Part shown: one piece after another, positions 4,713-32,000 of the stretch
How positions within the stretch are numbered: position 1 is the stretch's first letter
How the letters are laid out: the number at the start of each line of letters is the position of its first letter
Source: an uncultured Chloroflexota bacterium
GTDB lineage: Bacteria > Chloroflexota > UBA4733
Direction of reading: 5' to 3'
Length of the DNA: 32,000 nt
Assembly (NCBI GenBank): GCA_937967325.1
Contig: CALBSQ010000213.1
Coordinates: 18,634 to 50,633, forward strand
The notes under the pieces: generated by a model
Databases searched by the model: none
Told to the model about the DNA's origin: nothing
Seen by the model: only the letters and a program-made list of their open reading frames with translations
Position numbers and translations under genes: made by a program

Positions 4713-5210
4713 GTGCACACCCGTGTACTAGTGTTGAACGCCTCGTACGAACCTCTCAGTGTAGTTCCGGTACGTCGGGCCGTTTCCCTGCTGCTGCGGA
4801 ACAAGGCGGAGATCGTCGAGGCGGCCGAGCGCGCGCTGCGCTCGATGCACTTGTCCATCGATTGGCCGTTGGTCATTCGATTGGTCTACTACGTCCGCAT
4901 CGGCACGCTGACGCGTCCGGCGCCGTTCACCCGGCGCGGCGTCATCATGCGCGACCGTATCTGCCAGTACTGCGGCGGGACGAACGATCTGACCATCGAT
5001 CACGTCAAGCCGTTGTCTCGTGGCGGCGCCTCCGACTGGACGAACTGCGTGGCGGCCTGCGGCCCCTGCAACCGCCGCAAGGGCAACCGGATGCCGGATG
5101 AGGCGAAAATGCCGCTGCGCCACCAGCCCTATCAGCCGCGCTATCTGGCCTTCGCGCTCGTATCGGCCAACCCGGCCGAGGAGGCCTGGCGCAAGTACCT
5201 GGCGAGCTGA
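4713..5210 (+). CDS. HNH endonuclease family protein
   Basis: GTG start preceded by AGGAGG (4697-4702). The CQYCGG...[13 protein letters not shown]...[15 protein letters not shown] block is a classic HNH/CxxC zinc-finger nuclease motif. The gene ends in TGA. Confidence 0.85.
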
Positions 5211-5301
5211 CCTAAGTGGCCGGGCCTAGCATTGGCCAACCGTCGTCTCTCCGCGAGAGGGATCGGGCAACGCCGCGAATGTGCGCGATACAAATCGTCC
5301 G

Positions 5302-5490
5302 TCAGGCGAGCGCGCCCTCAGCCATGGCGTCGTCGATGGCCTGGTCAAGGTCCATCACCTGGCCGGCCGCGTGGGCGGCCGAATAGGCGTCGTCGCCCAG
5401 GGCCTCCCGGACGACCGCCGGCACCCGATCTGGCGCCCGAATTGAGGCGCCGGTCTGGCTGTAGATCAGCTCCGCCGTGCCGAGGAAGCG
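5302..5490 (-). pseudogene. 3'-terminal remnant of a TPR-type (large ATPase/LuxR/SARP-like) regulator
   Basis: The C-terminal ~60 aa of ORF 5302..5553 (LGTAELIYSQTG...ALGDDAYSAAHAAGQVMDLDQAIDDAMAEGALA) are homologous to the C-terminus of ORF 6714..7397 (LGTAHALLASTD...IGEVAFAPAWAAGQTLTVEQAVAEALEGA). No upstream domains are present. Confidence 0.4.
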
Positions 5491-5848
5491 CGGCTTGCTG
5501 GTACTGACCTCGCGCGGCGGCAACAACAACGGCGACGGCGGTGGCATCTTCAACTTCTTCTATATGGCGACCCTGGGCAACACCCTCCTGGCCGGGAACA
5601 CGGCGGGCAGTGTGCAGGCCAGCGGGGCGAGCGCGGTCGCGATCTGCGGCAGCACGCTGCCCGAGCTGGACGTGCGCGGGACCACGGGCTCCCTACTGGT
5701 CGGCAGCGCCGGGGACGACGCGGCCACGCCCTGCGCGGCCAACACCATCAATGGGACAGTCCTATTGGACGGCAATCAGGGTGGGCTGGAGCTGGGCGGC
5801 AACCAGATCGGCGGCAGCGCCCCTACAGGCGGGCGCCGTAGACAATGA
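5477..5848 (+). pseudogene. Fragment of a parallel beta-helix repeat protein
   Basis: NGDGGGIFNFFYMATLGNTLLAGNTAGS and INGTVLLDGNQGGLELGGNQIGG resemble GGxIxN...GNxA beta-helix repeats. The piece is only 123 aa, has no signal peptide, and overlaps the neighbouring remnant. Weak call. Confidence 0.3.
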
Positions 5849-5950
5849 CAATTCGCCTGGCAAACGGCCCGCTAGAGCGACGCGTGCTTGGCCTTATGGC
5901 ATACTGTGCTGACCGCGGGCCGATCCGCGCGGACCGAAGGAGGAGACAGC

Positions 5951-6523
5951 GTGGCGACCGAGCTAGCGGAGACGGTGGCCGGGAAACCCTACTGTTTCAC
6001 CGTCGACGACTATATGCGCATGAGTGAGGCGGGCATCTTTCAAGAAGACGACCCCGTTGAGCTGATTGAAGGGGAGATCCTCCAGATGGCGGCGGTCGGT
6101 GGCGATCACATTGGTTGTGTCAATACCCTGACCGCCCTCCTCGTGCATGGGGTCTACGGTATGGCGACGGTCAGCGTGCAGAATCCCGTCCGCCTTTCCA
6201 ATCACAGCGAGCCGGAGCCGGACGTTGCCTTGCTGCGACCCGATTTGCCAAGAAATGCCAAACCGGGGCCGACCGATGTGCTCCTGCTGATCGAGGTGGC
6301 CGACTCCTCACGCCTCTATGATCGCAGCCGAAAGATTCCGCTGTATGCCCGTTCCGGCATTATCGAAACCTGGCTGGTGGACCTGGTCGCCGGAACCATC
6401 GAGCAGAACACCGAGCCGAGCGCGGAGGGCTATGGCCAGACCACATTGCATCGCCGGGGGGATATCATCACGCCGGCAGCACTGCCGTTCTTGAGCCTTG
6501 ATGTCGGTGAGGTGCTCGGCTAA
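5951..6523 (+). CDS. Uma2-family (DUF820) putative endonuclease
   Basis: FTVDDYMRMSEAGIF...VELIEGEI...EPEPDVAL...LLIEVADSS...DRSRKIPLYARSGIIETWLVDL is the Uma2/PD-(D/E)xK pattern. I place the start at GTG 5951, in frame with track ORF 5888..6523, because GGAGGAG lies at 5938-5944. Confidence 0.8.
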   Translation: MATELAETVAGKPYCFTVDDYMRMSEAGIFQEDDPVELIEGEILQMAAVGGDHIGCVNTLTALLVHGVYGMATVSVQNPVRLSNHSEPEPDVALLRPDLPRNAKPGPTDVLLLIEVADSSRLYDRSRKIPLYARSGIIETWLVDLVAGTIEQNTEPSAEGYGQTTLHRRGDIITPAALPFLSLDVGEVLG

Positions 6524-6713
6524 GCGCGGAGCGACCGCGCGTGGCGCTGGCCGCGTCGGCGTGGGCGCGATTGCGAGCGCGGTTACCCGCTCCAGCGCCG
6601 CACACCGAGACGTGGACGAGGCGTTCTGCGTCCTACCAAGCCGGGGGAGATTCCTGGTCGGCGAGCCGACGATCGTCGCTCCGACCGGGCCCTTCCTCCT
6701 GATTCTGTGCCGG

Positions 6714-7397
6714 CTACGCCCCCTCCAGCGCTTCGGCGACAGCTTGCTCCACTGTCAGCGTCTGGCCCGCCGCCCAGGCAGGGGCGAACGCGACCTCACC
6801 GATGCGCTCCCGCGCCATCTGGAGGGTTTCCGCGCGATCGGAAAGGCCGAGCCAACTGTCGACGAGCGACGAGTCGGTGCTGGCGAGCAAGGCGTGCGCC
6901 GTTCCGAGCAGGCGCAGCGCGCGTTCGGGCTGCTCGCGCGCCGCGCTGATCGAGGCGAGCAACTCCAGGGAGGCGACGACACCCTCGCGGGAACCGTTGT
7001 CGCGGTGGATGGTCAGACTTTGCGCCGCGAGCGTCGTCGATCGCGACAGGTCGCCCTGGCGATAGGCAACCTGTCCCAGCAGGGTGATGCCATAACCCCC
7101 AACGCGCCTGAGACCCATACGCGTCCTCAGCGCGAGACCCTGCTCGAGCCAAGTCGCGGCCGCCGTCAGCTCGCCGCGCTGCAAGGCCACCGCTCCCAGA
7201 CCAACCTGCATCCCATAGAGGTGAATCGGCGAGTCCAGCTCGAGCGCGAGCTCGAGCCCTTCCTCGAACAGCGCCTGGGACCGCTCAAGCTGGCCCTCCA
7301 GCCGAGTGGACTGGCCGAGCTCCATCAGCACCTCCAGCATGAGAAAGCGCTCGCCGACCTGGCGCAGGATCGCCGGCCCCTGCTCCAGCAGTGTCAT
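6714..7397 (-). pseudogene. C-terminal TPR domain remnant of a large regulator (N-terminal ATPase/DNA-binding parts missing)
   Basis: The 227-aa ORF consists of TPR-like helical repeats only (LGQSTRLEGQLERSQALFEEGLELALE..., LLGQVAYRQGDLSRSTTLAAQSL...). An in-frame TGA lies 6 codons upstream of the ATG. On my recollection, full-length relatives are several-fold longer. Confidence 0.55.
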
Positions 7398-7419
7398 CGC
7401 CCGCGCGCGGTCTCACCTG

Positions 7420-8055
7420 GACCGGGCCGCCACGCCAACCATCATAAATCAGCACTCCAACGAAGCGAACGGCTGCGCGCCCGCCGGCCTCGCCGGTAGC
7501 GGGAACAACCTGTTCACCGGCGTGAAGACGCCGGGGGCCTGCAACAACGACATCCTGGTGAGTGTTTCTGGGGACGGAGGCAGCAGCTTCACGGGGACGA
7601 CGACCGACCCGCGGCAGCTCACGACCGTCACCCAGGCGCCCGGCCAGGCGACCACCGACCAGTTCTGGCAGTGGAGCGCCTTCACCAACGATGCCCGGCT
7701 GGTCGTGTCCTATTTCGACCGGCAGTATGGCAAGGATGATGCGACCGGCTTCTCGGACACCAGCCTGTCCAGCTCGGAGGATCTCGACCATTTCGCGGCG
7801 CAGCGAGTCACGATGGGCTCGATGCCGCCGCCGACCGAATTCGGAGGGATGTTCTTCGGCGATTACACCGGGCTAGCGGCCGTGGACGACGCCCACCCGC
7901 TGTGGATGGACACGCGGGATGCGGAGCTGTTCCTGTGTCCCGGCAGCGGCGCGCCCGGGGCACCGCCGGCGCTCTGCACGGCGTCGGCCAGCAACGCCAG
8001 CCGCGCCAACGACCAGGATATCTTTACCCAGTCCATCAATCCGCGGCAGCAGTAG
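7420..8055 (+). pseudogene. C-terminal remnant of a BNR/sialidase-like propeller protein
   Basis: Distal part of ORF 7306..8055. It has an Asp-box-like VSGDGGSSFTG and FFGDYTGLAAVDDAHPLWMDTRD (compare WGDYTAAALDP in the 864..3524 protein). There is no N-terminal domain or signal peptide, and it abuts the truncated TPR remnant on the other strand. Confidence 0.5.
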
Positions 8056-8080
8056 CGCGGCGCCGCGGACCGTCAGCGCC

Positions 8081-8111
8081 GGCCCCACTCCCGACAGGCG
8101 GGAGCGGGGCC
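8081..8111 (+). terminator. GC-rich hairpin downstream of the BNR remnant stop
   Basis: GGCCCCACTCCCG-ACAGG-CGGGAGCGGGGCC pairs at 12 of 13 positions, 26 nt after the TAG at 8053-8055. No U-tract. Confidence 0.3.
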
Positions 8112-8347
8112 GGCGCAGCCAGGATGGGATTTGCTCGACGGGCAGACGTCACGCCGCCCAGTCCAACGGTGGAGCGACCGCGCCCAAGTCACCCGATCCT
8201 GTCACGTCGAAGCTCTTTCCGCGCTTTGCCTCGCCGGCAGAAACGCCGCCGGTACGCTGCTCAGTCAGCACATCATGTGGCAAGCAGGATCGTAGACTAG
8301 GGGCACGCTCGGTCACCGGGACCGTTCGGCTGGTCGACCGGCTGAAT

Positions 8348-9358
8348 GTGGCCCGAGACGGCAGCGAGAGTCGTCGCGTGCGCGGGGAGAGTTGGGCGTC
8401 GGATGTGTCCATAGCACGCAAGGATGATCCGTTCGGTACCGCCGCCGGTGATCTCTCCGCTCCCGCTCATCTGGAGTCCGACGGCGTGCTCACCACGGCG
8501 TTCTCGGACCTCGACCTGCGCCGCTGGAAAGAACACGACGTCATCACGGGCTCGCTCTGGCTGCTGGGCGCCCGCGACAAAACGGGTCCCCACGTAGGCG
8601 ACTATTGGGGCAACTTCGTTCCCCAGATAGCTTCCCAGATCCTGAGGCGATTCACCAAAGCTGGTGAGGTCGTCGTCGATCTGTTCACTGGGATGGGCAC
8701 GACCCTGATCGAGTGCCGGCGACTTGGACGGCACGGTATAGGCGCCGAGCTCTTGCCCGACGTGGCCGAGCGCGCTCGACAACGAATTGTCGAGGCGGAG
8801 AATGCCGGTCGCGTCTCCACCGAGGTGCTGGTCGGCGATTCGCGCATGTCCGAAACCGTCTGCCTCGTCCGGGAAAGGATCGCGATGCTGGGCTTCGAGC
8901 ATGCCCACTGCGTGATCCTGCACCCGCCCTATCACGACATCATCAAGTTCAGCGACGACCCGCGCGACCTCTGCAACGCGCCCTCCATCGAGGCATTTCT
9001 CGGGGAATTTGAGAAGGTCGTCCTGAATGCCGTGGGTCTGTTGGAACCGGGGCGCTTTCTGGCGCTCGTGATCGGCGACAAGTATGCCAAGGGGGCATGG
9101 GTGCCGCTGGGTTTCCTCTGCATGGAGGTCTGCCGCACCCACGGTCTGCAACTCAAGTCCATCAACGTGAAGGACATCCAGGGCAACGAGAAGGGCAAGG
9201 GGAAGCTCGAGAATCTCTGGCGCTATCGGGCGCTTCGCCAGGGGAGCTCGGTCTTCAAGCACGAGTACGTGATGGTGTTCCGAAAGGGACCCAGGAAGTC
9301 AAGCCGCGATGCCGGCGGAGCGCCGTCGCGCGTGGTAGCGAGGAGGACCGGCGAGTGA
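8348..9358 (+). CDS. SAM-dependent methyltransferase, N4/N6 DNA-methylase-like with permuted motif order
   Basis: Motif I is VVDLFTGMGTTLIEC, motif IV-like is ILHPPYHDII, and the C-terminus carries HEYVMVFRKG, a hE.i.vf.K-type block as in N4/N6 DNA methylases. The first ~140 codons of track ORF 7919..9358 are Arg/Pro-rich and overlap the BNR remnant, so they are probably not translated. In-frame GTG candidates are at 8348, 8378 and 8405, so the start is uncertain. Confidence 0.65.
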   Translation: MARDGSESRRVRGESWASDVSIARKDDPFGTAAGDLSAPAHLESDGVLTTAFSDLDLRRWKEHDVITGSLWLLGARDKTGPHVGDYWGNFVPQIASQILRRFTKAGEVVVDLFTGMGTTLIECRRLGRHGIGAELLPDVAERARQRIVEAENAGRVSTEVLVGDSRMSETVCLVRERIAMLGFEHAHCVILHPPYHDIIKFSDDPRDLCNAPSIEAFLGEFEKVVLNAVGLLEPGRFLALVIGDKYAKGAWVPLGFLCMEVCRTHGLQLKSINVKDIQGNEKGKGKLENLWRYRALRQGSSVFKHEYVMVFRKGPRKSSRDAGGAPSRVVARRTGE

Positions 9359-10173
9359 AGATGAAGATCACCGACATCAAGGCGACGAATCTCGATATCC
9401 CGTACGAGGCTCCCTACCGGCCGGCCTGGCAGCCGGGGCTGGTGCGGAACTCCCGTGATTTCACCTTCGTTCGCGTCTACACGGACGCCGGAATTGTCGG
9501 GTATGCCGGGACTGACGGTCAGCACGCCGGGACGATCGCGCGAAGCGTTGCCCCGTACCTGATCGGGCAGGACGCCTTCGCTACCGAGCAACACGCCCGC
9601 GTGTTGCGCCACGCTGGTGGCATGTGGTGCGTGGACCTGGCCCTTTGGGACATCATCGGCAAGGCCGCTGGGCTGCCACTGTATCAACTGTGGGGAGCGG
9701 CGCGGGACAAGGTGCAGGCCTACGCCAGTGCCGCCGAGCTCGGGACGCCGGAGAATCGCGCCGAACTGGCTGTCCGCTATCGCGCCGAGGGATTCCGCGC
9801 CATGAAGCTCCGCTTCCATCAGGATCAGATGAAGGACGACCTGGCGCTATTCGATCGGGTCCACGCGGCGGCTCCGGACCTGACGATCATGATCGACGCC
9901 AATCAGGCCACCACCTTGCCGTCGCCGGAGCCCGGACCCATCTGGGACTACCAACGCGCCTTGCAGACGGCCCGCGAGCTCGAGCAGCGCGGCGCGTACT
10001 GGCTGGAGATGATGTACGAGCCGCCGACGCGCACCATCGAGGTCTACCAGCAACTGGGCGGCATCCTGGAAAGCACCCTCTGGATCGACGAGGACGGCTT
10101 TGTGCGGCCACCGGCGGGGCCGGGCCTCGGCGTCAGTGTGAATGAGGAGCGCATTGCGCGGTTCGCGGTTTAG
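9355..10173 (+). CDS. Mandelate racemase/muconate lactonizing enzyme (enolase superfamily) protein, apparently internally truncated
   Basis: GTG 9355 lies 7 nt after AGGAGGA and overlaps the upstream stop (GTGA). The capping domain and the early barrel motifs are present (FRAMKLRF, IMIDANQA, YWLE). The sequence then jumps straight to the C-terminal tail ...GFVRPPAGPGLGVSVNEERI. At 272 aa it is about 100 aa shorter than typical family members as I recall them. Confidence 0.6.
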   Translation: MKMKITDIKATNLDIPYEAPYRPAWQPGLVRNSRDFTFVRVYTDAGIVGYAGTDGQHAGTIARSVAPYLIGQDAFATEQHARVLRHAGGMWCVDLALWDIIGKAAGLPLYQLWGAARDKVQAYASAAELGTPENRAELAVRYRAEGFRAMKLRFHQDQMKDDLALFDRVHAAAPDLTIMIDANQATTLPSPEPGPIWDYQRALQTARELEQRGAYWLEMMYEPPTRTIEVYQQLGGILESTLWIDEDGFVRPPAGPGLGVSVNEERIARFAV

Positions 10174-22036: not shown

Positions 22037-22553
22037 CGGCAGTCTCCCCTCCACCCGCCCTGTTGGGCATGGCCTCGATGAGCTCGTGAATCGTCCGTGC
22101 GGCCACCGCCACGGCCGCTTGAACCGGCGGGCTGAGTCCCTCGGAGAGCTCGTCGCAGTCGCGCGGTTGGCAGCCAACGAGAAGCGTGCGCTTGGGTAGC
22201 ACGTCGAGCGCCTTGGCCAGAACGAACACGCGCGACGGCTCGGCGAGATGCAGGTTGGAGAACGTGGACTGCCAATCACCGGCTGAAAGCGCGTGGGGGT
22301 TCGGCACGGACGGTTCCAGCACGAATACCGTCCCCGGCGCCGCGCCGCGATCGACACTGTCGACCACGATCAAGGTCTCGTATCCATCCATCAACTGGTG
22401 TACGATGCTGAGTCCGCCGATACCCGTCTCGATCAGGTCGATAACCGACGGCAGACGATCCTCAGCGGCCAGCCGGCGAGCAACGGCGACGCCGAAGCCG
22501 TCGTCGCCGCGGAGGACATTTCCCACCTCCGCGACGAGTACCCGCCCGCTCAC
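22014..22553 (-). CDS. [NiFe]-hydrogenase maturation endopeptidase (HyaD/HybD family), canonical copy
   Basis: GTG 22553 is preceded by GGAAGGAG and overlaps the upstream stop (GTGA). VLVAEVGNVLRGDDGFG gives the GNxxxGDDGxG motif, and VVDSVD and NLHLAEP supply the Asp and His metal ligands. Confidence 0.85.
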   Translation of the reverse strand: MSGRVLVAEVGNVLRGDDGFGVAVARRLAAEDRLPSVIDLIETGIGGLSIVHQLMDGYETLIVVDSVDRGAAPGTVFVLEPSVPNPHALSAGDWQSTFSNLHLAEPSRVFVLAKALDVLPKRTLLVGCQPRDCDELSEGLSPPVQAAVAVAARTIHELIEAMPNRAGGGETADVPGRSS

Positions 22554-23412
22554 GCCGTGGCTCCTTCCAGGAGGCCGATTCGCACGTCGTCGCCCTCGAC
22601 GGCGATGGGCATGACGCCGAGGCCAGCGCCGGGGCCGTCGAGTCGCTTGCCGCCGCGAAGGTCGAAGCGGCAGCCATGCCAGGGGCACTGGAGCACGGTT
22701 CCCTGTACGCGGCTGCCATCTAAGGGCAAGGGAGAGCCGGGGCAGGCGTTCCGGTAGGCGTACAGCTCACCTGCCAGGTTGGCAATCAACGCTCGCTCCC
22801 CTCCACGTCGAGGCCACGCACGCTGCCTGGCGGTAGCTCGGAGACTCGGAGCACCGTCCTCCAGCTCAGCCGCGGACGCGCCATCGCAACGTTTGAGAGT
22901 GGAATGAAGTTTGCGGGCGGGCTGGGTGGCGGCTCCAGCGCGTCCAGACGGATGAAGTCGGGAAGTCCTTCGTGGAGCGCCTGTTCGATCACGTGGTGAA
23001 GCGTCGCGGCCGAGCCATGGCAGCCATGGCAGGAACCGGACAAGCGCAGCGTCACCACGCCGGCTTCAGCCGCGACGACTTCCAGGCGGCCGCCGTGCGA
23101 CTCGATGTAGGGTCGCACGCCATCCAGTACCGCCTCCGCCCTGATCCGCTCGCCCCCCTCACCGAGGTCGTACATGTCGAACAACAGCCGGACTTCGGGG
23201 TCGTCGAGCGCCCGCCGTTGTAGCCCTGCCATCGTTAGCAGCTCGCCCAGCCGCCGCATTCCGGCGCGATGGACGATGTCGTCACACTGGAGCAGCTCGA
23301 AAGCGCGCTCCTTGACGGCCGCATCGGGGTGCTGCTCGAAGGCATGGACGAGGTCGTCCAGCCGGTCGACGGCAGCGACGAGCTCGGGCGGCAATTCGCG
23401 CTCAGGCTCCAT
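22550..23412 (-). CDS. NifU-like / Rieske-like Fe-S protein (HhyE-like?), split by a 1-nt frame change at 22786-22789
   Basis: ORF 22786..23412 contains a NifU C-terminal-type module (SHGGRLEVV...VTLRLSGSCHGCHGSAATL) and the first strands of a Rieske fold (SWRTVLRVSELPPGSVRGLDVEGSER). ORF 22550..22789 continues that fold (IANLAGELYAYRNACPG...LQCPWHGCRFDL). The junction reads cgTTGAttg. Confidence 0.7.
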
Positions 23413-24454: not shown

Positions 24455-26331
24455 TCAGTCGTCCAGCTCGCAGGCGCAGGTGGTCACCTCGCGCGTGATG
24501 GTCCTGGGGCCGGCGTAGACGTGGGTCGTGCAGGGCATGCAAGGGTCGAAGCTGCGGATAGTGCGCAGGATGTCGATGGCCTTGAACTCCTCCGGGCTGT
24601 TGAATTGCTCGAGAATGGGCGTGTTCACGACCGCTTCTTCGTACGGTCCCGGCTGGCCGAAGGGGTCGACGGGAGAGGCGTTGGTGGTGGAGGGCGTGCA
24701 GATTTGGTAGTTTGTTATGACGCCGCGATCCATGGTGAGGTGATGGGCCAGGTAGCCGCGACCGGCGCCCCAGAAGCCCACGCCGATGCGCGGATCTCGC
24801 GGCACCTTGAAGTCGGCCGAGACGGCCGTCTCTCCCCTCTTCATCAAGTTGTAGCCGGCCAGCAGGTTGTTGAGGCAGACCAGCGCGGTGTAGGCCTGCG
24901 CGTAGGCACGGGCGCGGTTGCGCTCGATGGCGTTGCACTCGCTCGGCACCACCCATTCCAGCGTCATCTCCGGCAGCGCGCCCTTCGGCATGACCAGCCG
25001 CAGACTGGTCCCGGTCGACTCGATGAAGGGGTTGGCGGGCAGCTTCTTGGCGACGGCGGTGATCCACATGCGCGCGTAGGCGCCCGCCTCCACCACCTGG
25101 CGGTCCCAGCGCGGCGCCGTGCCCCAGGTGTATTTCTCCTTCCAGCTCCGACCCCCGGCCTGGGGAGCGTCTGCTTGTTCCAGGGATGATGGGGGCTCAG
25201 CGGGCTGCCCAGCGGGTCGGTGCGGTAGGGCGGCGTGCCGCCGGCCCAGCCTTCGTAGTAGGAGTGCTCGACGAACTCCTCCAGTCCCAGGTTGATGCTG
25301 TGCAGGCTCGTGGTCCTCAGCTCGCCGTCGATCATGACGCCCGGAGTCGCCCAGCGCCGCTCTCCCCAGTCGGCGGCGTGCTCGTAGCGGGCGTCGTAGG
25401 CCTCGTGGTGCTCCCAGATGCCGAGGTCGATTAGGTGGCGAGGCCGCACGCCCACGCGGTGGAAGCCGGGATTGGCTTGGTAGAGGAACTCCGAGATGTC
25501 GTCCCAGATGGTCACCATCCGCTTGGCGTGGTCCAGCAGCGTGAACAGGCGGATCTGATACTCGTTGAACGTCTGGGTGCTGATCGTCGTGCTGATGCCG
25601 CCCGGCACGATGGTCTGGGGGTGCGGGTACTTGCCCCAGACCAGGGAACACATCTCGCGCGCTCGGCGGGTGATCTCCAGCGCTTCCAGGTAGAGCGGGC
25701 CGGAGAGCGGATTGAGGGCGGTCATTAGGTCGGCCATGGTCCGGAAGCCGTGGACGGCGGCGTTCGGGGCCGCCGCCTGCTCCGCCTTGCCCCAGATCTC
25801 GGGATTGGTGGACCGGATGATAGCCTCGGAATAGTCGGGGCCGGCCAGCAGGAACAGGTGGAGCGGGTGGTCGTACAGGAACTCGGCCGCCTGCCCCAGG
25901 TTGCGCACCACGATCCCCATGGGCGGCGGCTGCACCCCGAAGGCCATCTCGATCGCTTCGGCGGCGCAGTTGGAGTGGACGCCGCCACAGACGCCGCAGG
26001 CGCGACTGGAGATGTAGATGGCGTCGCGTGGGTCACGTCCTTTCAGGATCACCTCGTAGCCGCGGAACAGCGTGGCCATGGAGTGCGCGTCGTGGACCGT
26101 GCGGTTCTCCAGGTCGACCACGGAGTGGAAGGCCAGGGCGCCGGCCACACGGGTGACCGGGTCGATGCTGACCTCCTTGATGTGGCCGTTCCTGGCCAGC
26201 AGCTCTTCGATGCGCTGCTGGCGGTCCTCCACCGCGCGGGTGCTCGTGTAGGTGTAGGGGTCGGTCGCGCCCTCTTTCAGGTGCGCTCGGCCTTGCTCGT
26301 CGAACTCGATGGGCAGGTTCTTGAAGCACAT
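24455..26331 (-). CDS. [NiFe]-hydrogenase large subunit (group 1h/5-like), with an apparent 1-nt frameshift near 25162-25165
   Basis: The N-terminal ORF 24964..26331 carries the L1 motif SSRACGVCGGVHSNC. The C-terminal ORF 24455..25651, in another frame, carries SFDPCMPCTTHVY plus a cleavable tail. The two frames meet at ...HPWNKQTLP | QAGGRSWKEKYTWGTAPRW. Adding one C to the C4 run of the mRNA gives a continuous 625-aa protein. Confidence 0.85.
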
Positions 26332-26344
26332 GGACCGACCCTCT

Positions 26345-26623
26345 CTACTGCGCCATTTCCGCCAGGCGACGCTCGGCCGAGCCGAGGCTAGCGGCGATCG
26401 CCTCGCCGCCAGCGGCGAGCTGCGTCAGCGCCGCCGCGGTGATCGGCAGCTCGGTCTTGAGGATGGCCGTCTCGCTCTCGATGGCGCGCACCCCCATGGC
26501 GATCTTGGCCAGCGAGCGATTGATCCCCTCCAGGGCGGTACGGATACGGCTCAGCATCGCGACCAGGGCGCCGAGGAAGAGCCAGAGCGCCAGCGTGGAG
26601 AGGATGGTCAGGATTAGCGGCAT
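26345..26623 (-). CDS. Small single-pass membrane protein, type B' of a four-gene paralog array
   Basis: 92 aa with an N-terminal TM (LILTILSTLALWLFLGALVAML) followed by a helical region (INRSLAKIAMGVRAIESETAIL...). It is a paralog of 26956..27261. The TGATG junction gives a 1-nt overlap with the upstream gene, and the gene ends 13 nt before the large-subunit start. Confidence 0.7.
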   Translation of the reverse strand: MPLILTILSTLALWLFLGALVAMLSRIRTALEGINRSLAKIAMGVRAIESETAILKTELPITAAALTQLAAGGEAIAASLGSAERRLAEMAQ

Positions 26624-26943
26624 CAGGGCGCCTCCCCTCTTGGGTTCTTCCGGGCGAGCGCCCGGCCCAGGCCGGCAAGTCGGCCCTCGATCGCCGACGT
26701 CGTACGATCCAGCACCTCCACCGCTTGCAGCAGCCGGCCGGCGGTCTGGAGGACGCCTTCGAGCTGGGCGATCGTCGCGGTGTTGCCGGCGATGCCCTGT
26801 GCCGCCGGGAGCGCCACCTTGGCCAGCCGGTTGATCTCGCGGGCATGACCGATGACGACGACGATGTTGGCGACGGCGATGACCGTGAGGATGAGGGCGA
26901 CGACGAGGGCAATCCAGCCGACGACGATAATGGCCGCGTCCAT
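26623..26943 (-). CDS. Small single-pass membrane protein, type A' of the paralog array
   Basis: 106 aa with an N-terminal TM, then AREINRLAKVALPAAQGIAGNTATIAQLEGVLQTAGRLL. It is a clear paralog of 27263..27574 (ANRIDRHALAVWEAGKGIAANTVQIWQLQ). Confidence 0.7.
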   Translation of the reverse strand: MDAAIIVVGWIALVVALILTVIAVANIVVVIGHAREINRLAKVALPAAQGIAGNTATIAQLEGVLQTAGRLLQAVEVLDRTTSAIEGRLAGLGRALARKNPRGEAP

Positions 26944-26955
26944 GGGCGCCCTCCC

Positions 26956-27261
26956 TCAGGCCACGCGTCTGACAGCGACTGCTTCGCCCATGACGGCCGC
27001 CAGATGCCCGTCGGTTGCTTCCAGGTGATCCGCGGTCGAGCTCAAGCCCCGCGCCACAGCGCCGAGCCCCGTGTTCAGCACGTTGATGTGTTGCGCCAGT
27101 GGGGCCGTCTGCCGCTCGACCAGTTGCACTCCCACTGCGATCCGGCTGAGGGTGCTCCCGATGCTCCAGAGGGCGACGGCGATGATGATCAGGCTCACCG
27201 CCAGCACCACGATCAGGACGACGGCGTAGATAATAGCGACCCAGGTCAAGACGGCGACCAT
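26956..27261 (-). CDS. Small single-pass membrane protein, type B of the paralog array
   Basis: 101 aa with an N-terminal TM (WVAIIYAVVLIVVLAVSLIIIAVAL), then STLSRIAVGVQLVERQTAPLAQHINVL..., paralogous to 26345..26623. Confidence 0.7.
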   Translation of the reverse strand: MVAVLTWVAIIYAVVLIVVLAVSLIIIAVALWSIGSTLSRIAVGVQLVERQTAPLAQHINVLNTGLGAVARGLSSTADHLEATDGHLAAVMGEAVAVRRVA

Positions 27262-27262
27262 G

Positions 27263-27574
27263 CTAGCCCTTTCCCTGGAGGGCCGCGGGCAGCCGCTCCA
27301 GTCGCTGGTCGATCGAGCCGGCCACCGCGGCGATGCCCTGGGCGGTCTGCAGGATCTCCGTGGCCGTGGCGTTGGTCTTCTGGAGCTGCCAGATCTGGAC
27401 GGTGTTGGCGGCGATGCCCTTGCCCGCCTCCCAAACCGCCAGCGCGTGGCGGTCGATGCGATTGGCGGCCGCGGCGATCCAGATCAGCAACAGGGCGACC
27501 ACGACGATGACGATTGCCGCGGCGCCCAGCGTGATCCACCAGACGGTGATAACGTCCATCGGATCATTTCCCAC
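27263..27574 (-). CDS. Small single-pass membrane protein, type A of the paralog array
   Basis: 103 aa from GTG 27574, with an alternative ATG at 27559. It has an N-terminal TM (VWWITLGAAAIVIVVVALLLIWIAAAA) followed by a helical region. It lies 24 nt after the small-subunit stop and 1 nt before the next gene. Confidence 0.7.
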   Translation of the reverse strand: MGNDPMDVITVWWITLGAAAIVIVVVALLLIWIAAAANRIDRHALAVWEAGKGIAANTVQIWQLQKTNATATEILQTAQGIAAVAGSIDQRLERLPAALQGKG

Positions 27575-27598: not shown

Positions 27599-28828
27599 CT
27601 ACTGCCTGACCTGCTTCGCAGCGGTGTTGCGCCGCTGCGCCGAATCGTAGCCGCGATGCACCAGCCGGTCGACGAAGGTCGTGCTCGAGGCGGCGCCCCA
27701 GCCGATCGGCGCCTGGCCGGTTTCGTCCCAGCGCACCTCGCGGTTGCGGTCGCGCTGGGTGATCCGGCGCAGCGGCCGAACGAAAGAGCCCACCAGGCGC
27801 GAGGCCGTGCCGGACACCATCGTGCCCGGCGGGGCCGTGTAGAAGGGCGCAAACTTATCGGGGAAGCCGGGCATGGTACAGCCGATGCAGGGAGCGCCGG
27901 TATTCATTCAACCGCCGACGTGGTTGATGGCGCCGCGGCTGGTGATGTTGCAGTTGACCACGGGTCCCCAGCAGCCGATCTCCACCAGGCACTCCTTGTC
28001 GCCGTACTCCTTGGCGAAGGAGCCCTCCTCGTAGTAGCCGGCGCGCAGGCACTGGCGGTGGACGGTCTCGCCGAAGAGCCAGGCCGGCCGCCCCAGGTCG
28101 TCGAACTCCGGCGAGGGGCCGATGCCTTGCAGGAAGAGCAGGATGGCGGCGACCGTTTCGGTGAAGTTGTCGCCGATGGGCGAGCAGCCGGGCACGTTCA
28201 CCACCGGCAGCCCCAGCGCCGAGCGGTAATCCCGTCCCAGGAAGTCCATCATGCTCATGGCACCGGTGGGATTGCCGTAGGCTGCCGGGACGCCGCCCCA
28301 GGTAGCGCAGGTGCCGATGGCGATCACGGCAGCCGCGCCGGGCGCCAGACGCTGGACCCATTCCGCGGACGGGATCTGGCGCTTCCCGCCGGTTGCCGGG
28401 TTCTCCTCCTCGCCCACCGCCGACCAGTAGCCGCCCTGTGGCCCGGCCTTGCTCTCGTCGGCGATGGAGCCCTCGTAGACGATGACGTAGGGGTCTCCCA
28501 GCTCACCGCGCCAGGCCCGGCGCATCGGCTCGACGAAGGCGTCGCCGGCCTCGAGCTGGATGGCGGTGTGATGCAGGTAGACGATCGGCACGCCGGGGAT
28601 GGAGCCGGTGAGCAGGCTCTCCACGGACGGCTGTGTGGCGCTCAGCACGGCGATGGAGCAACCGTCACAGCTCATGCCGGCCAGCCAGAAGACGTGTACG
28701 CGCTCGAACGGACCCAGCTTCGTCGCCGGACCTGCCTTGGCGGCGACGATATTGGCCCATTCCTCCTGACTGATGCCGGCCACGTTGCCGGCCTGGGAGA
28801 TCGGGGGCATCGGCTCAGCAACGGTCAT
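27599..28828 (-). CDS. [NiFe]-hydrogenase small subunit (no Tat signal), interrupted by one in-frame TGA at 27908-27910
   Basis: ORF 27908..28828 carries the proximal-cluster region (FWLAGMSCDGCS, GTCATWGG, PGCSP) and the distal/medial region (HRQCLRAG...ECLVEIGCWGPVVNCN...HVGG). After the TGA, ORF 27599..27907 continues in the same frame with MNTGAPCIGCTMPGFPDKFAPFY, which is the conserved CIGC end of the same domain. The SD AAGGAGGG precedes ATG 28828. Confidence 0.85.
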
Positions 28829-28861: not shown

Positions 28862-29665
28862 TCACACGCCGGCGGGGATCGGAAGCCCTAGCCGCTCGAC
28901 CAGTTGGTCGGCGAGGTCCTGGACTGCTGCCACCGCCGGCGCGTTGGCGTCGTGGTCGATGATCGCCCGGCCGAGGTGGTCCGCCTCGGTGACGCGCTCA
29001 TCAAATGGCACTTGTCCGACGATGTCGAAGCCGCGGCGCGCGCAGTACTCGCGGAGCGCCGCCTCATCGCGGCCGTCGCGCACCTTATTGGCAACGACCC
29101 AGACCCGCTCCAGACCGAGCTCTTGAGCAAGGGGCACCATGCGCCCTGCCGTTTCCAGCGAGCGGTAGTAGGGCTCGGTCACGACCAGCAGCACGCCGAC
29201 GTTGCGCACCGTGCCGCGCGTGAGGTGTTCGATCGAGGCTTCCATATCGAGGATGGTGACGTCGCTGGGCCGCTGTGCCGGCAGCTCACCCATGACGCCG
29301 CGTACCGCGGCGTGCTGTCCGCAGAGTCAACCCTTGCCCGCGCCGAGCAGGCCCGTCATCATGAGCACGCCGACGTTATCGGGTCCGTGGGTCCCGTACT
29401 CTCCCAGCACTTCCTCGAACGGCCTGGTGAGGTGCAGCGCGTGATGCCCATCGGCGTCGGCGCGCTCCTCCAGGATGTCGTCCCGGGGTACCCGCTTGAG
29501 GCTATGCAGTTGGTCGGGTGTCAGGCCGAGCGCCGTGGCAAGGTTCGGGTTCGGGTCGTCGTCCAGGGCGTTGACGCAGTAGCCGCGGCGGGCGAGCACA
29601 CGGGCCAGCCTCGCCGCGACGGTCGTCTTTCCCGAGCCGCCTTTGCCGGAGAGTCCAATGCGCAC
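28862..29665 (-). CDS. CooC-type (MinD/ParA-family) nickel-insertion ATPase, interrupted by one in-frame TGA at 29327-29329
   Basis: GTG 29665 is preceded by GAAGGAAG. The deviant Walker A is GLSGKGGSGKTT. After the TGA the same frame continues LCGQHAAVRGVMGEL...ILDMEASIEHLTRGT...VVANKVRD, matching the CooC pattern on both sides of the stop. Track ORFs 29327..29710 and 28862..29293 are the two halves. Confidence 0.8.
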
Positions 29666-29911
29666 TAGTTCACTTCCTTCGCTGACGCTGTGGAGTCCGG
29701 TCGACCACATCTTGGCCGGCTGCGGACCCGTGGCGATCGCGCGCCTGGCCAGACGCTCCTTCCTCGACGACGACGGAGGGCAGGCCGCAAGTGCTCAGCC
29801 CTTAGTACATCGGAACGAACAGCAGGGCAAGGTAAACGCTCTTGGCGGGAGCACCATGGATCTCCGTGACATGCCCGGTAGCAGACCATCTAGGGCGACC
29901 GTACGGCCAGC

Positions 29912-31643: not shown

Positions 31644-32000
31644 CTAGCGCGACATTCCGACGGCCGTGAGCGTGCCGTTGGCGGCTGGCCGGACGCTCCG
31701 AGTTGGCGCCGCGTTGACCGCGTGCGACGAGCTGATGGCGTGCGTTCGCGGGCGCTCGGCGGACTGCCAGCGGATGGCGATGGTCTCCACCACGGCGCGG
31801 AAGTCGGCTCGCGCCTCGGGCGACAGCCGGTCGTTGGTGAGGAGTCGCGTGACCGCCGCGACCGTCGAATCGGCGGGACCCAGCTTCTGCAAGCTTGGCG
31901 GCACGTGGCCGGCGGAGAAGAGGAGCCGGTCGACCTCCTCGGTAGAGAGCGACAGCGCGCGAGCCAGCGCCTGGGCCACTTCGCGTGTCGGCGCCTCGCG
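31644..32000 (-). CDS. Probable XRE-type HTH regulator, partial; the 5' end lies outside the window
   Basis: The frame stays open to the window edge (…REAPTREVAQALARALSLSTEEVDRLLFSAGHVP…). This resembles the end of an XRE HTH (recognition helix plus the L..AL.LS..E...LL.AAG tail), followed by a helical domain. Confidence 0.55.
   Translation of the reverse strand, partial: REAPTREVAQALARALSLSTEEVDRLLFSAGHVPPSLQKLGPADSTVAAVTRLLTNDRLSPEARADFRAVVETIAIRWQSAERPRTHAISSSHAVNAAPTRSVRPAANGTLTAVGMSR

Follow-up and report, generated by a model that had tools for sequence, protein, structure and literature searches.

A probable recent nonsense mutation at an iron-sulfur ligand codon of a [NiFe]-hydrogenase small subunit, and a candidate CooC-like selenoprotein gene beside it, in one Chloroflexota population

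The stretch of DNA analysed here (the window) comprises 32,000 nucleotides of contig CALBSQ010000213.1 (assembly GCA_937967325.1) from an uncultured Chloroflexota bacterium, and carries a [NiFe]-hydrogenase operon on its minus strand. The gene for the small subunit (28828..27599) is a frame of 409 codons with one interruption, a TGA at 27910-27908 that is immediately followed by an ATG and divides the frame into open reading frames (ORFs) of 306 and 102 amino acids; it translates as ...ECLVEIGCWGPVVNCNITSRGAINHVGG*MNTGAPCIGCTMPGFPDKF... The second of these ORFs (27599..27907) starts at a conserved Met and holds the CIGC cluster ligands and the C-terminal extension. The large subunit gene (24455..26331) lies downstream, and directly upstream is a gene for a CooC-like P-loop ATPase of the carbon monoxide dehydrogenase (CODH) maturation factor family (28862..29710), which reads through one UGA. 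The original prediction, made from the letters of the window, had recognised the hydrogenase small subunit and placed its TGA at these positions in one continuous frame, and both points hold. For the codon itself it had offered three explanations: a nonsense mutation of a Cys codon, a selenocysteine (Sec) codon, or a stop with a restart that yields a two-piece subunit.

More than 7,000 database proteins match the small subunit, with a top identity of 85%, and its frame contains the Pfam families PF01058 and PF14720. Among solved structures the closest is HofK of Ralstonia eutropha (PDB 5AA5_A, E 3.7e-104), which belongs to the actinobacterial-type group 5/1h and with which the window protein is co-linear over residues 41-369. 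The two proteins share a VGGC-xN-xG-x-CIGCTMPGFPDKF segment and both genes adjoin that of a large subunit. They differ in that the Cys codon of the GGC motif is TGA in the window, in that the proximal-cluster motif reads CDGC in the window and CDGD in HofK, and in that four small single-transmembrane paralogue genes stand between the subunit genes of the window. No RRxF motif or recognisable twin-arginine translocation (Tat) signal was seen when the N-terminus was inspected by eye. Homology, the ligand pattern for three clusters, the adjacent large subunit and the missing Tat signal together mark the gene as that of a group 1h/5-type small subunit.

The TGA falls on an invariant position. In alignments its column is occupied by Cys in all 119 of 119 full-length homologues, within the motif GG-C-MNxGxxCIGC, as well as in 5AA5_A and in the small subunits of the [NiFeSe] hydrogenases 1CC1_S and 4KL8_S, which bears out the earlier proposal that the codon replaces the fourth Cys ligand of the medial [4Fe-4S] cluster. 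The further statement that one base separates it from a Cys codon is likewise correct, the orthologues reading GGC TGC where the window reads GGT TGA. The ATG that follows is the Met of the C-M-N sequence and is present at that position in all homologues, a point that had been overlooked when this ATG was put forward as a possible restart codon. The [NiFeSe] hydrogenases (Desulfomicrobium baculatum 1CC1, D. vulgaris 2WPN and others) have a small-subunit Cys at the same column and a chain made up entirely of [4Fe-4S] clusters, and they provide the precedent for Sec in hydrogenases. Their Sec is found in the large subunit (DPUxxC), where it ligates Ni; the codon at that position in the window is TGC (24541-24539, within DPCMPCTTH), as had been noted. 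The literature agrees with the earlier statement on where Sec occurs in [NiFe]-hydrogenases: it is documented for large subunits only, namely those of groups 1 and 3 and, since 2026, group 4 (PMC13582414).

Two further lesions were found in the same operon, neither of which had been noticed before. The large subunit gene is split into ORFs of 455 and 178 amino acids at CCG GGG GTC (25152..25156, minus strand), which is one base short relative to the P-x-G-R-x-W sequence of all orthologues; correction of the frame gives a protein of 625 amino acids. All five complete large subunits in related loci are unbroken, and the length is 621-640 amino acids in 116 of the 120 best-matching proteins, the remaining 4 being shorter entries. 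A NifU-Rieske fusion gene (22550..23412, minus strand) is split in the same manner into 208 and 79 amino acids, at GAG GGG AGC (22798..22801), again one base short at a G run, and is a single ORF of 277-290 amino acids in two of the related loci (L005 and L012). The operon therefore holds three lesions, the TGA and two single-base deletions at G runs, none of which is shared by relatives; extra disabling lesions of this kind, lacking in orthologues, are what is expected of a pseudogene. Programmed -1 frameshifting at the two G GGG N sites was considered and rejected, as none of the orthologues is shifted and the sites are not canonical slippery heptamers.

Sequencing or assembly error could account for the TGA, the frameshifts or both, and would leave the genes intact. 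Both frameshifts lie at G runs and the coding sequences are otherwise pristine, which speaks for such errors. Nevertheless, the same split genes are present in three metagenome assemblies (JGI 3300022557, JGI 3300007982 and ENA ERZ27245795) that are 99.99-100% identical to the window, and the TGA is therefore not a one-off assembly error. The TGA and the large-subunit frameshift are identical in all three, although they were produced by different pipelines including a MEGAHIT short-read assembly, and short reads are unlikely to produce a C-to-A consensus error. It is possible that the three assemblies have reads in common or stem from one site, and they represent one population rather than independent lineages or independent evolution. 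No further frameshift turned up in the remaining genes of the window, by ORF and Pfam inspection only. Error is accordingly regarded as extremely improbable. The sole difference between the window and an independently assembled contig (L003) is at 29437, C versus A, which changes Leu to Met or the reverse at a non-conserved site of the CooC-like protein.

To look for other small subunits with the same interruption, the degenerate DNA pattern GGN TGA ATG AAY NNN GGN N6 TGY ATH GGN TGY was scanned against collections that do not include the contig of the window. It had no match in 185,579 species represented by one genome each, and a single match in a metagenome collection of 241 million records; this locus (L004) does not encode a hydrogenase and was set aside as chance. 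The comparison with TGA-bearing orthologues that the original prediction had proposed thus found none to compare. Among about 15 billion proteins, the 306- and 102-amino acid products form single-member clusters at 90%. The orthologous small subunits that stand beside CooC-like genes with a UGA of their own, described below, are uninterrupted in 11 of 11 cases, and the site reads GGC TGC in 9 of the 9 whose DNA spans it. The UGA is therefore not conserved in orthologues of other lineages, as far as the genome and metagenome scans reach.

Bacterial selenoprotein genes combine a UGA with a SelB-bound selenocysteine insertion sequence (SECIS) that follows immediately downstream, and the small-subunit TGA resembles them in being aligned to a Cys of its homologues. 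The hairpin that had been pointed out after it, GCAUCG-GCUGUA-CCAUGC (27871..27888, minus strand), does exist, but it contains a C-C mismatch and is weak (-3.6 kcal/mol), and the surrounding 60 nucleotides (nt) after the TGA fold no better than shuffled sequence (-10.8 kcal/mol against a shuffle mean of -12.75). Where a Cys orthologue encodes the Thr as ACG, the hairpin is fully paired and reaches -8.5 kcal/mol; since it is stronger where no UGA is present, it is a by-product of the C-I-G-C-T-M codons rather than an adaptation. Over the 50 nt after the TGA the window is the least structured among ten orthologues (-10.8 versus -14.9 to -24.7 kcal/mol), and no stem of at least 6 base pairs (bp) starts 5-25 nt after the codon. 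A stable SECIS about 10-25 nt after the UGA, with a G(U) in its apical loop, was not found. SelB-dependent insertion of Sec requires a local hairpin.

Searches with RNA models gave the same picture. A covariance model was built from the SECIS-like hairpins of the CooC-type genes and run on the window with filters off and at E <= 10; it matched only the CooC site (69.8 bits, E 3e-15), so that the covariance-model check suggested in the original prediction came out against the small-subunit site, where nothing was reported even at this threshold. At its gathering thresholds Rfam returned no match for the sequence, and permissive settings gave only sub-threshold eukaryotic microRNA and small nucleolar RNA families, which were read as chance.

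From these results the small-subunit TGA is read, with a probability of roughly 0.8, as a nonsense change from TGC that is peculiar to this lineage, in an operon inactivated not long ago. The codon is unique, it is followed by no SECIS and it is accompanied by two further lesions, and of the three options first proposed it is the nonsense mutation of a Cys codon that is favoured. In such a sequence of events, a recent TGC to TGA change would have removed, from a cytosolic small subunit, the Cys that serves the medial [4Fe-4S] cluster as fourth ligand, and single-base deletions at G runs would have shifted the frames of the large subunit and the NifU-Rieske accessory gene in this population only. 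Translation would most likely terminate at the UGA and give a 306-amino acid product without the CIGC ligands; neither a restart at the neighbouring AUG nor near-cognate read-through, should they occur, would be more than incidental. A functional enzyme is not expected, because the large subunit is broken. That the mutation struck a Cys codon is unremarkable, because 11 of the 109 one-step nonsense routes in the small subunit gene (about 10%) start at Cys codons. An early argument that two TGAs at Cys codons for metal ligands could not both be due to chance was dropped, as the TGA of the CooC-like gene is an old, conserved codon.

A stop at the UGA followed by re-initiation at the overlapping AUG (UGAAUG) would instead give a two-piece subunit that lacks the fourth ligand and might have, for instance, a medial cluster resembling [3Fe-4S]. 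The TGA and ATG adjoin, both pieces are called by gene callers and both are conserved, and standard group 1 enzymes tolerate a Pro at this column, with a [3Fe-4S] cluster. Set against this, the ATG is merely the Met of all homologues and not an adaptation, no clear Shine-Dalgarno sequence precedes it, the genome and metagenome scans and the protein clusters revealed no second case of a split small subunit, and the frameshifted large subunit leaves no partner enzyme. A functional restart is judged highly improbable.

Several observations sit less easily with a decaying operon. Columns conserved in at least 97% of homologues number 154 in the small subunit, 211 in the frame-corrected large subunit and 55 in the CooC-like protein. 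A single one deviates, in the small subunit, and none of the 30 that follow the TGA does; the coding sequence past both frameshifts is still perfectly conserved. This is within the range of intact homologues, and no sign of relaxed selection was detected. If the genes are pseudogenes, their inactivation must therefore have been very recent, the proteins being otherwise as conserved as intact ones; alternatively, the lengths of the G runs could be polymorphic in the population or wrong in the assemblies. The context of the TGA is also unusual. The Gly codon in front of it is GGT, a rare one, against GGC in all orthologues, and GGT also precedes 10 of the 29 UGAs in Sec-type CooC genes, compared with about 8% of Gly codons in the hydrogenase genes of the window. 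The densest cluster of T-ending codons in the small subunit gene (6 of 21) starts exactly at the TGA. Finally, UGA is very probably translated as Sec by this organism in the CooC-like gene 1.4 kb upstream. All of these weigh against simple decay, and the last of them is the reason why a Sec reading of the small-subunit TGA stays alive.

The CooC-like gene aligns end to end with CooC1 of Carboxydothermus hydrogenoformans, a nickel-insertion ATPase and its best PDB match (3KJE, E 3e-30). It differs from CooC1 in standing in a hydrogenase operon rather than a CODH operon, and in having UGA (presumably Sec) in place of the first Cys of the CxC motif in at least 27 species. The codon, a TGA at 29327..29329 on the minus strand, lies in the context GKG-U-LCGQHAAVRG (motif G-U-L-C-G-Q-H-A-A-V-R-G) and is probably a Sec codon; its column is Cys in 115 of 116 Cys-type homologues. 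A pattern scan of species-representative genomes (loci L008-L035) retrieved 27 true loci with the same UGA, in addition to two others (L005 and L007), and a 28th match (L013) was attributed to chance. The hosts are Thermomicrobiales, Ktedonobacterales and other Chloroflexota, Rubrobacter and other Actinomycetota, Armatimonadota and the bacteria HR26 and HR28. In nine fetched scan loci the small subunit starts about 0.5 kb downstream of the CooC TGA, and the same holds for L007, a 3.19-Mb contig of a Chloroflexota metagenome-assembled genome in which the Sec-type gene lies at 9032-9952. As a rule the Sec-type gene stands directly upstream of that for the small subunit. The in-frame UGA is the reason why these genes are annotated as split ORFs of about 100-155 and about 144 amino acids.

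A SECIS-like hairpin, ACGCCGCG-GUA-CGCGGCGU (29295..29313, minus strand), begins 13 nt after the UGA of the window's CooC-like gene and has a predicted stability of -13.6 kcal/mol, as against -3.6 kcal/mol for the hairpin at the small-subunit TGA. It conforms, with 8 bp and a GUA loop, to a consensus (AC)GCC-RCN-GUN-CGY-GGC(GU) that starts at the same distance from the UGA and is conserved and covarying in 29 sequences. Most of the helix was fixed by the search pattern, so that only the pair at columns 22 and 30 of the alignment (A1) is an independent test of covariation, and this pair is GC in 17 sequences, AU in 11 and GU in 1, and is never unpaired. At this pair Ala GCN goes together with Arg CGC, and Thr ACN with Arg CGT, and the switches occur within near-identical protein contexts. 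Cys-type homologues are variable in the segment that encodes the hairpin, and the Cys-type copy in L005 contains neither the motif nor the hairpin. Synonymous variation around an invariant peptide extends across the UGA, which is therefore translated.

The CooC-like gene combines a UGA at a Cys column with conservation across that UGA and a covarying hairpin. Judged on these comparisons it is probably a genuine selenoprotein gene, or else one in which UGA is recoded to Cys through tRNAReC (PMC13582414). No selenoprotein of the CooC, ParA or MinD type is given in a 2026 review of the prokaryotic selenoproteome (PMC13188914) or in the text of the BSepDB paper, although a database may list one; an apparent mention of CooC in PMC5424206 proved to be the word 'cooccurrence'. 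NCBIfam holds no specific model for the protein. The Sec-type CooC-like ATPase is probably a selenoprotein family, present in at least 27 species and undescribed in the sources searched, and would be a new one. The conserved UGA and SECIS of this gene had not been remarked on in the original prediction. Within the portion of the contig that was seen (about 41.5 kb, the window and 9.5 kb past one end) there are no sel genes, and ARAGORN found no tRNA-Sec in the window or in 31 loci.

Two UGA-bearing CooC paralogues occur in L005, at 1-623 and 1339-2112. The second has two in-frame TGAs in the sequence G-U-P-U-C-G (TGA CCT TGA TGT), and a different hairpin of 7 bp, CCUGAGC-AGUU-GCUCGGG (-10.6 kcal/mol), follows 12 nt after the second UGA. 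A single SECIS may serve both UGAs of this paralogue.

With a Sec-type gene so close by, decoding of the small-subunit UGA as Sec, or as Cys by a tRNAReC/SelB-type system, has to be weighed with some care; it would give a full-length subunit with Sec or Cys as the fourth ligand. The TGA lies exactly on an invariant Cys ligand, sequence downstream of it is fully conserved, and the adjacent gene with its conserved UGA and SECIS makes the organism very probably Sec-decoding. The GGT-TGA context is common to the CooC-like gene and enriched before Sec-type UGAs, and the local excess of T-ending codons includes a TGT that places GU in the loop of the weak hairpin, whose loop position (nt 29) and G-first loop satisfy permissive criteria of the bSECISearch style. 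In the L005 paralogue with two UGAs, moreover, the lone downstream hairpin begins 18 nt after the first of them. A Sec codon in the small subunit could be older than the frameshifts.

The evidence on the other side is heavier. The TGA is found in no orthologue and stands alone among thousands of relatives, a dozen of which have a Sec-type CooC gene; the only hairpin after it is ancestral, unstable and weaker than in the Cys orthologues, and two frameshifts in the same operon speak against current function. In lacking both a stable hairpin and conservation the small-subunit TGA is unlike bacterial selenoprotein genes, whereas the CooC-like TGA has both. Sec in a [NiFe] small subunit has no natural precedent known to us, and none is described in the 2026 literature searched. 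Decoding as Sec or Cys is for these reasons considered very unlikely, and the Sec option of the original prediction is not upheld. A particular form of such decoding, in which the UGA is read as Sec, or as Cys by a tRNAReC-like system, through the machinery that serves the CooC-like gene and has been caught just as a switch from Cys to Sec arose, is judged most unlikely; if true, it would introduce selenium as a ligand of an iron-sulfur cluster for the first time in a [NiFe]-hydrogenase small subunit.

Other features of the locus were recorded alongside. Between the small and large subunit genes lie four tandem paralogous genes for small single-transmembrane proteins of 92-106 amino acids (26345-27574, minus strand), none of which has a Pfam family. 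The arrangement of four such genes between the subunit genes is shared by L007, and a similar four-gene set is found in L005 about 4 kb downstream of the large subunit and on the opposite strand. About 3 kb beyond position 32000 of the window, the same contig (piece L036, 6220-7449) contains ORFs of 69 and 336 amino acids in one frame, joined by a TGA in the context ...NPLGCT-TGA-NNGVAG..., which is C-x-U-like and marks a possible further read-through gene. This candidate has no Pfam match, and the fold downstream of its TGA is no better than shuffles.

A gene of the mandelate racemase/muconate-lactonizing enzyme family at 9330-10173 (plus strand) has an apparent internal deletion, running from the WLE motif to a C-terminal PGLGV, and Pfam MR_MLE_C was matched at positions 3-78 of 219 only, which suggests another gene remnant in this genome. 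The cluster of genes at 4713-9358 may be mobile or related to defence; it encodes an HNH endonuclease, a Uma2-family endonuclease-like protein, a tetratricopeptide repeat fragment and a DNA methyltransferase. The internal deletion and the tetratricopeptide repeat fragment are only suggestive of pseudogenisation across the genome.

The feature first flagged in the small subunit is best filed as ordinary gene decay, and the earlier reading stands for the gene and the site but missed the frameshifts. On the reading of the TGA as a recent nonsense mutation, an atmospheric-H2-type hydrogenase would be in the course of being lost in one Chloroflexota population. The case also indicates that alignment of a TGA with Cys does not suffice for calling Sec, not even where the organism decodes Sec. 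Of greater value is the CooC-like selenoprotein candidate, which, if confirmed, would bring selenium into a maturation factor for hydrogenase, at a site that handles nickel or another metal.

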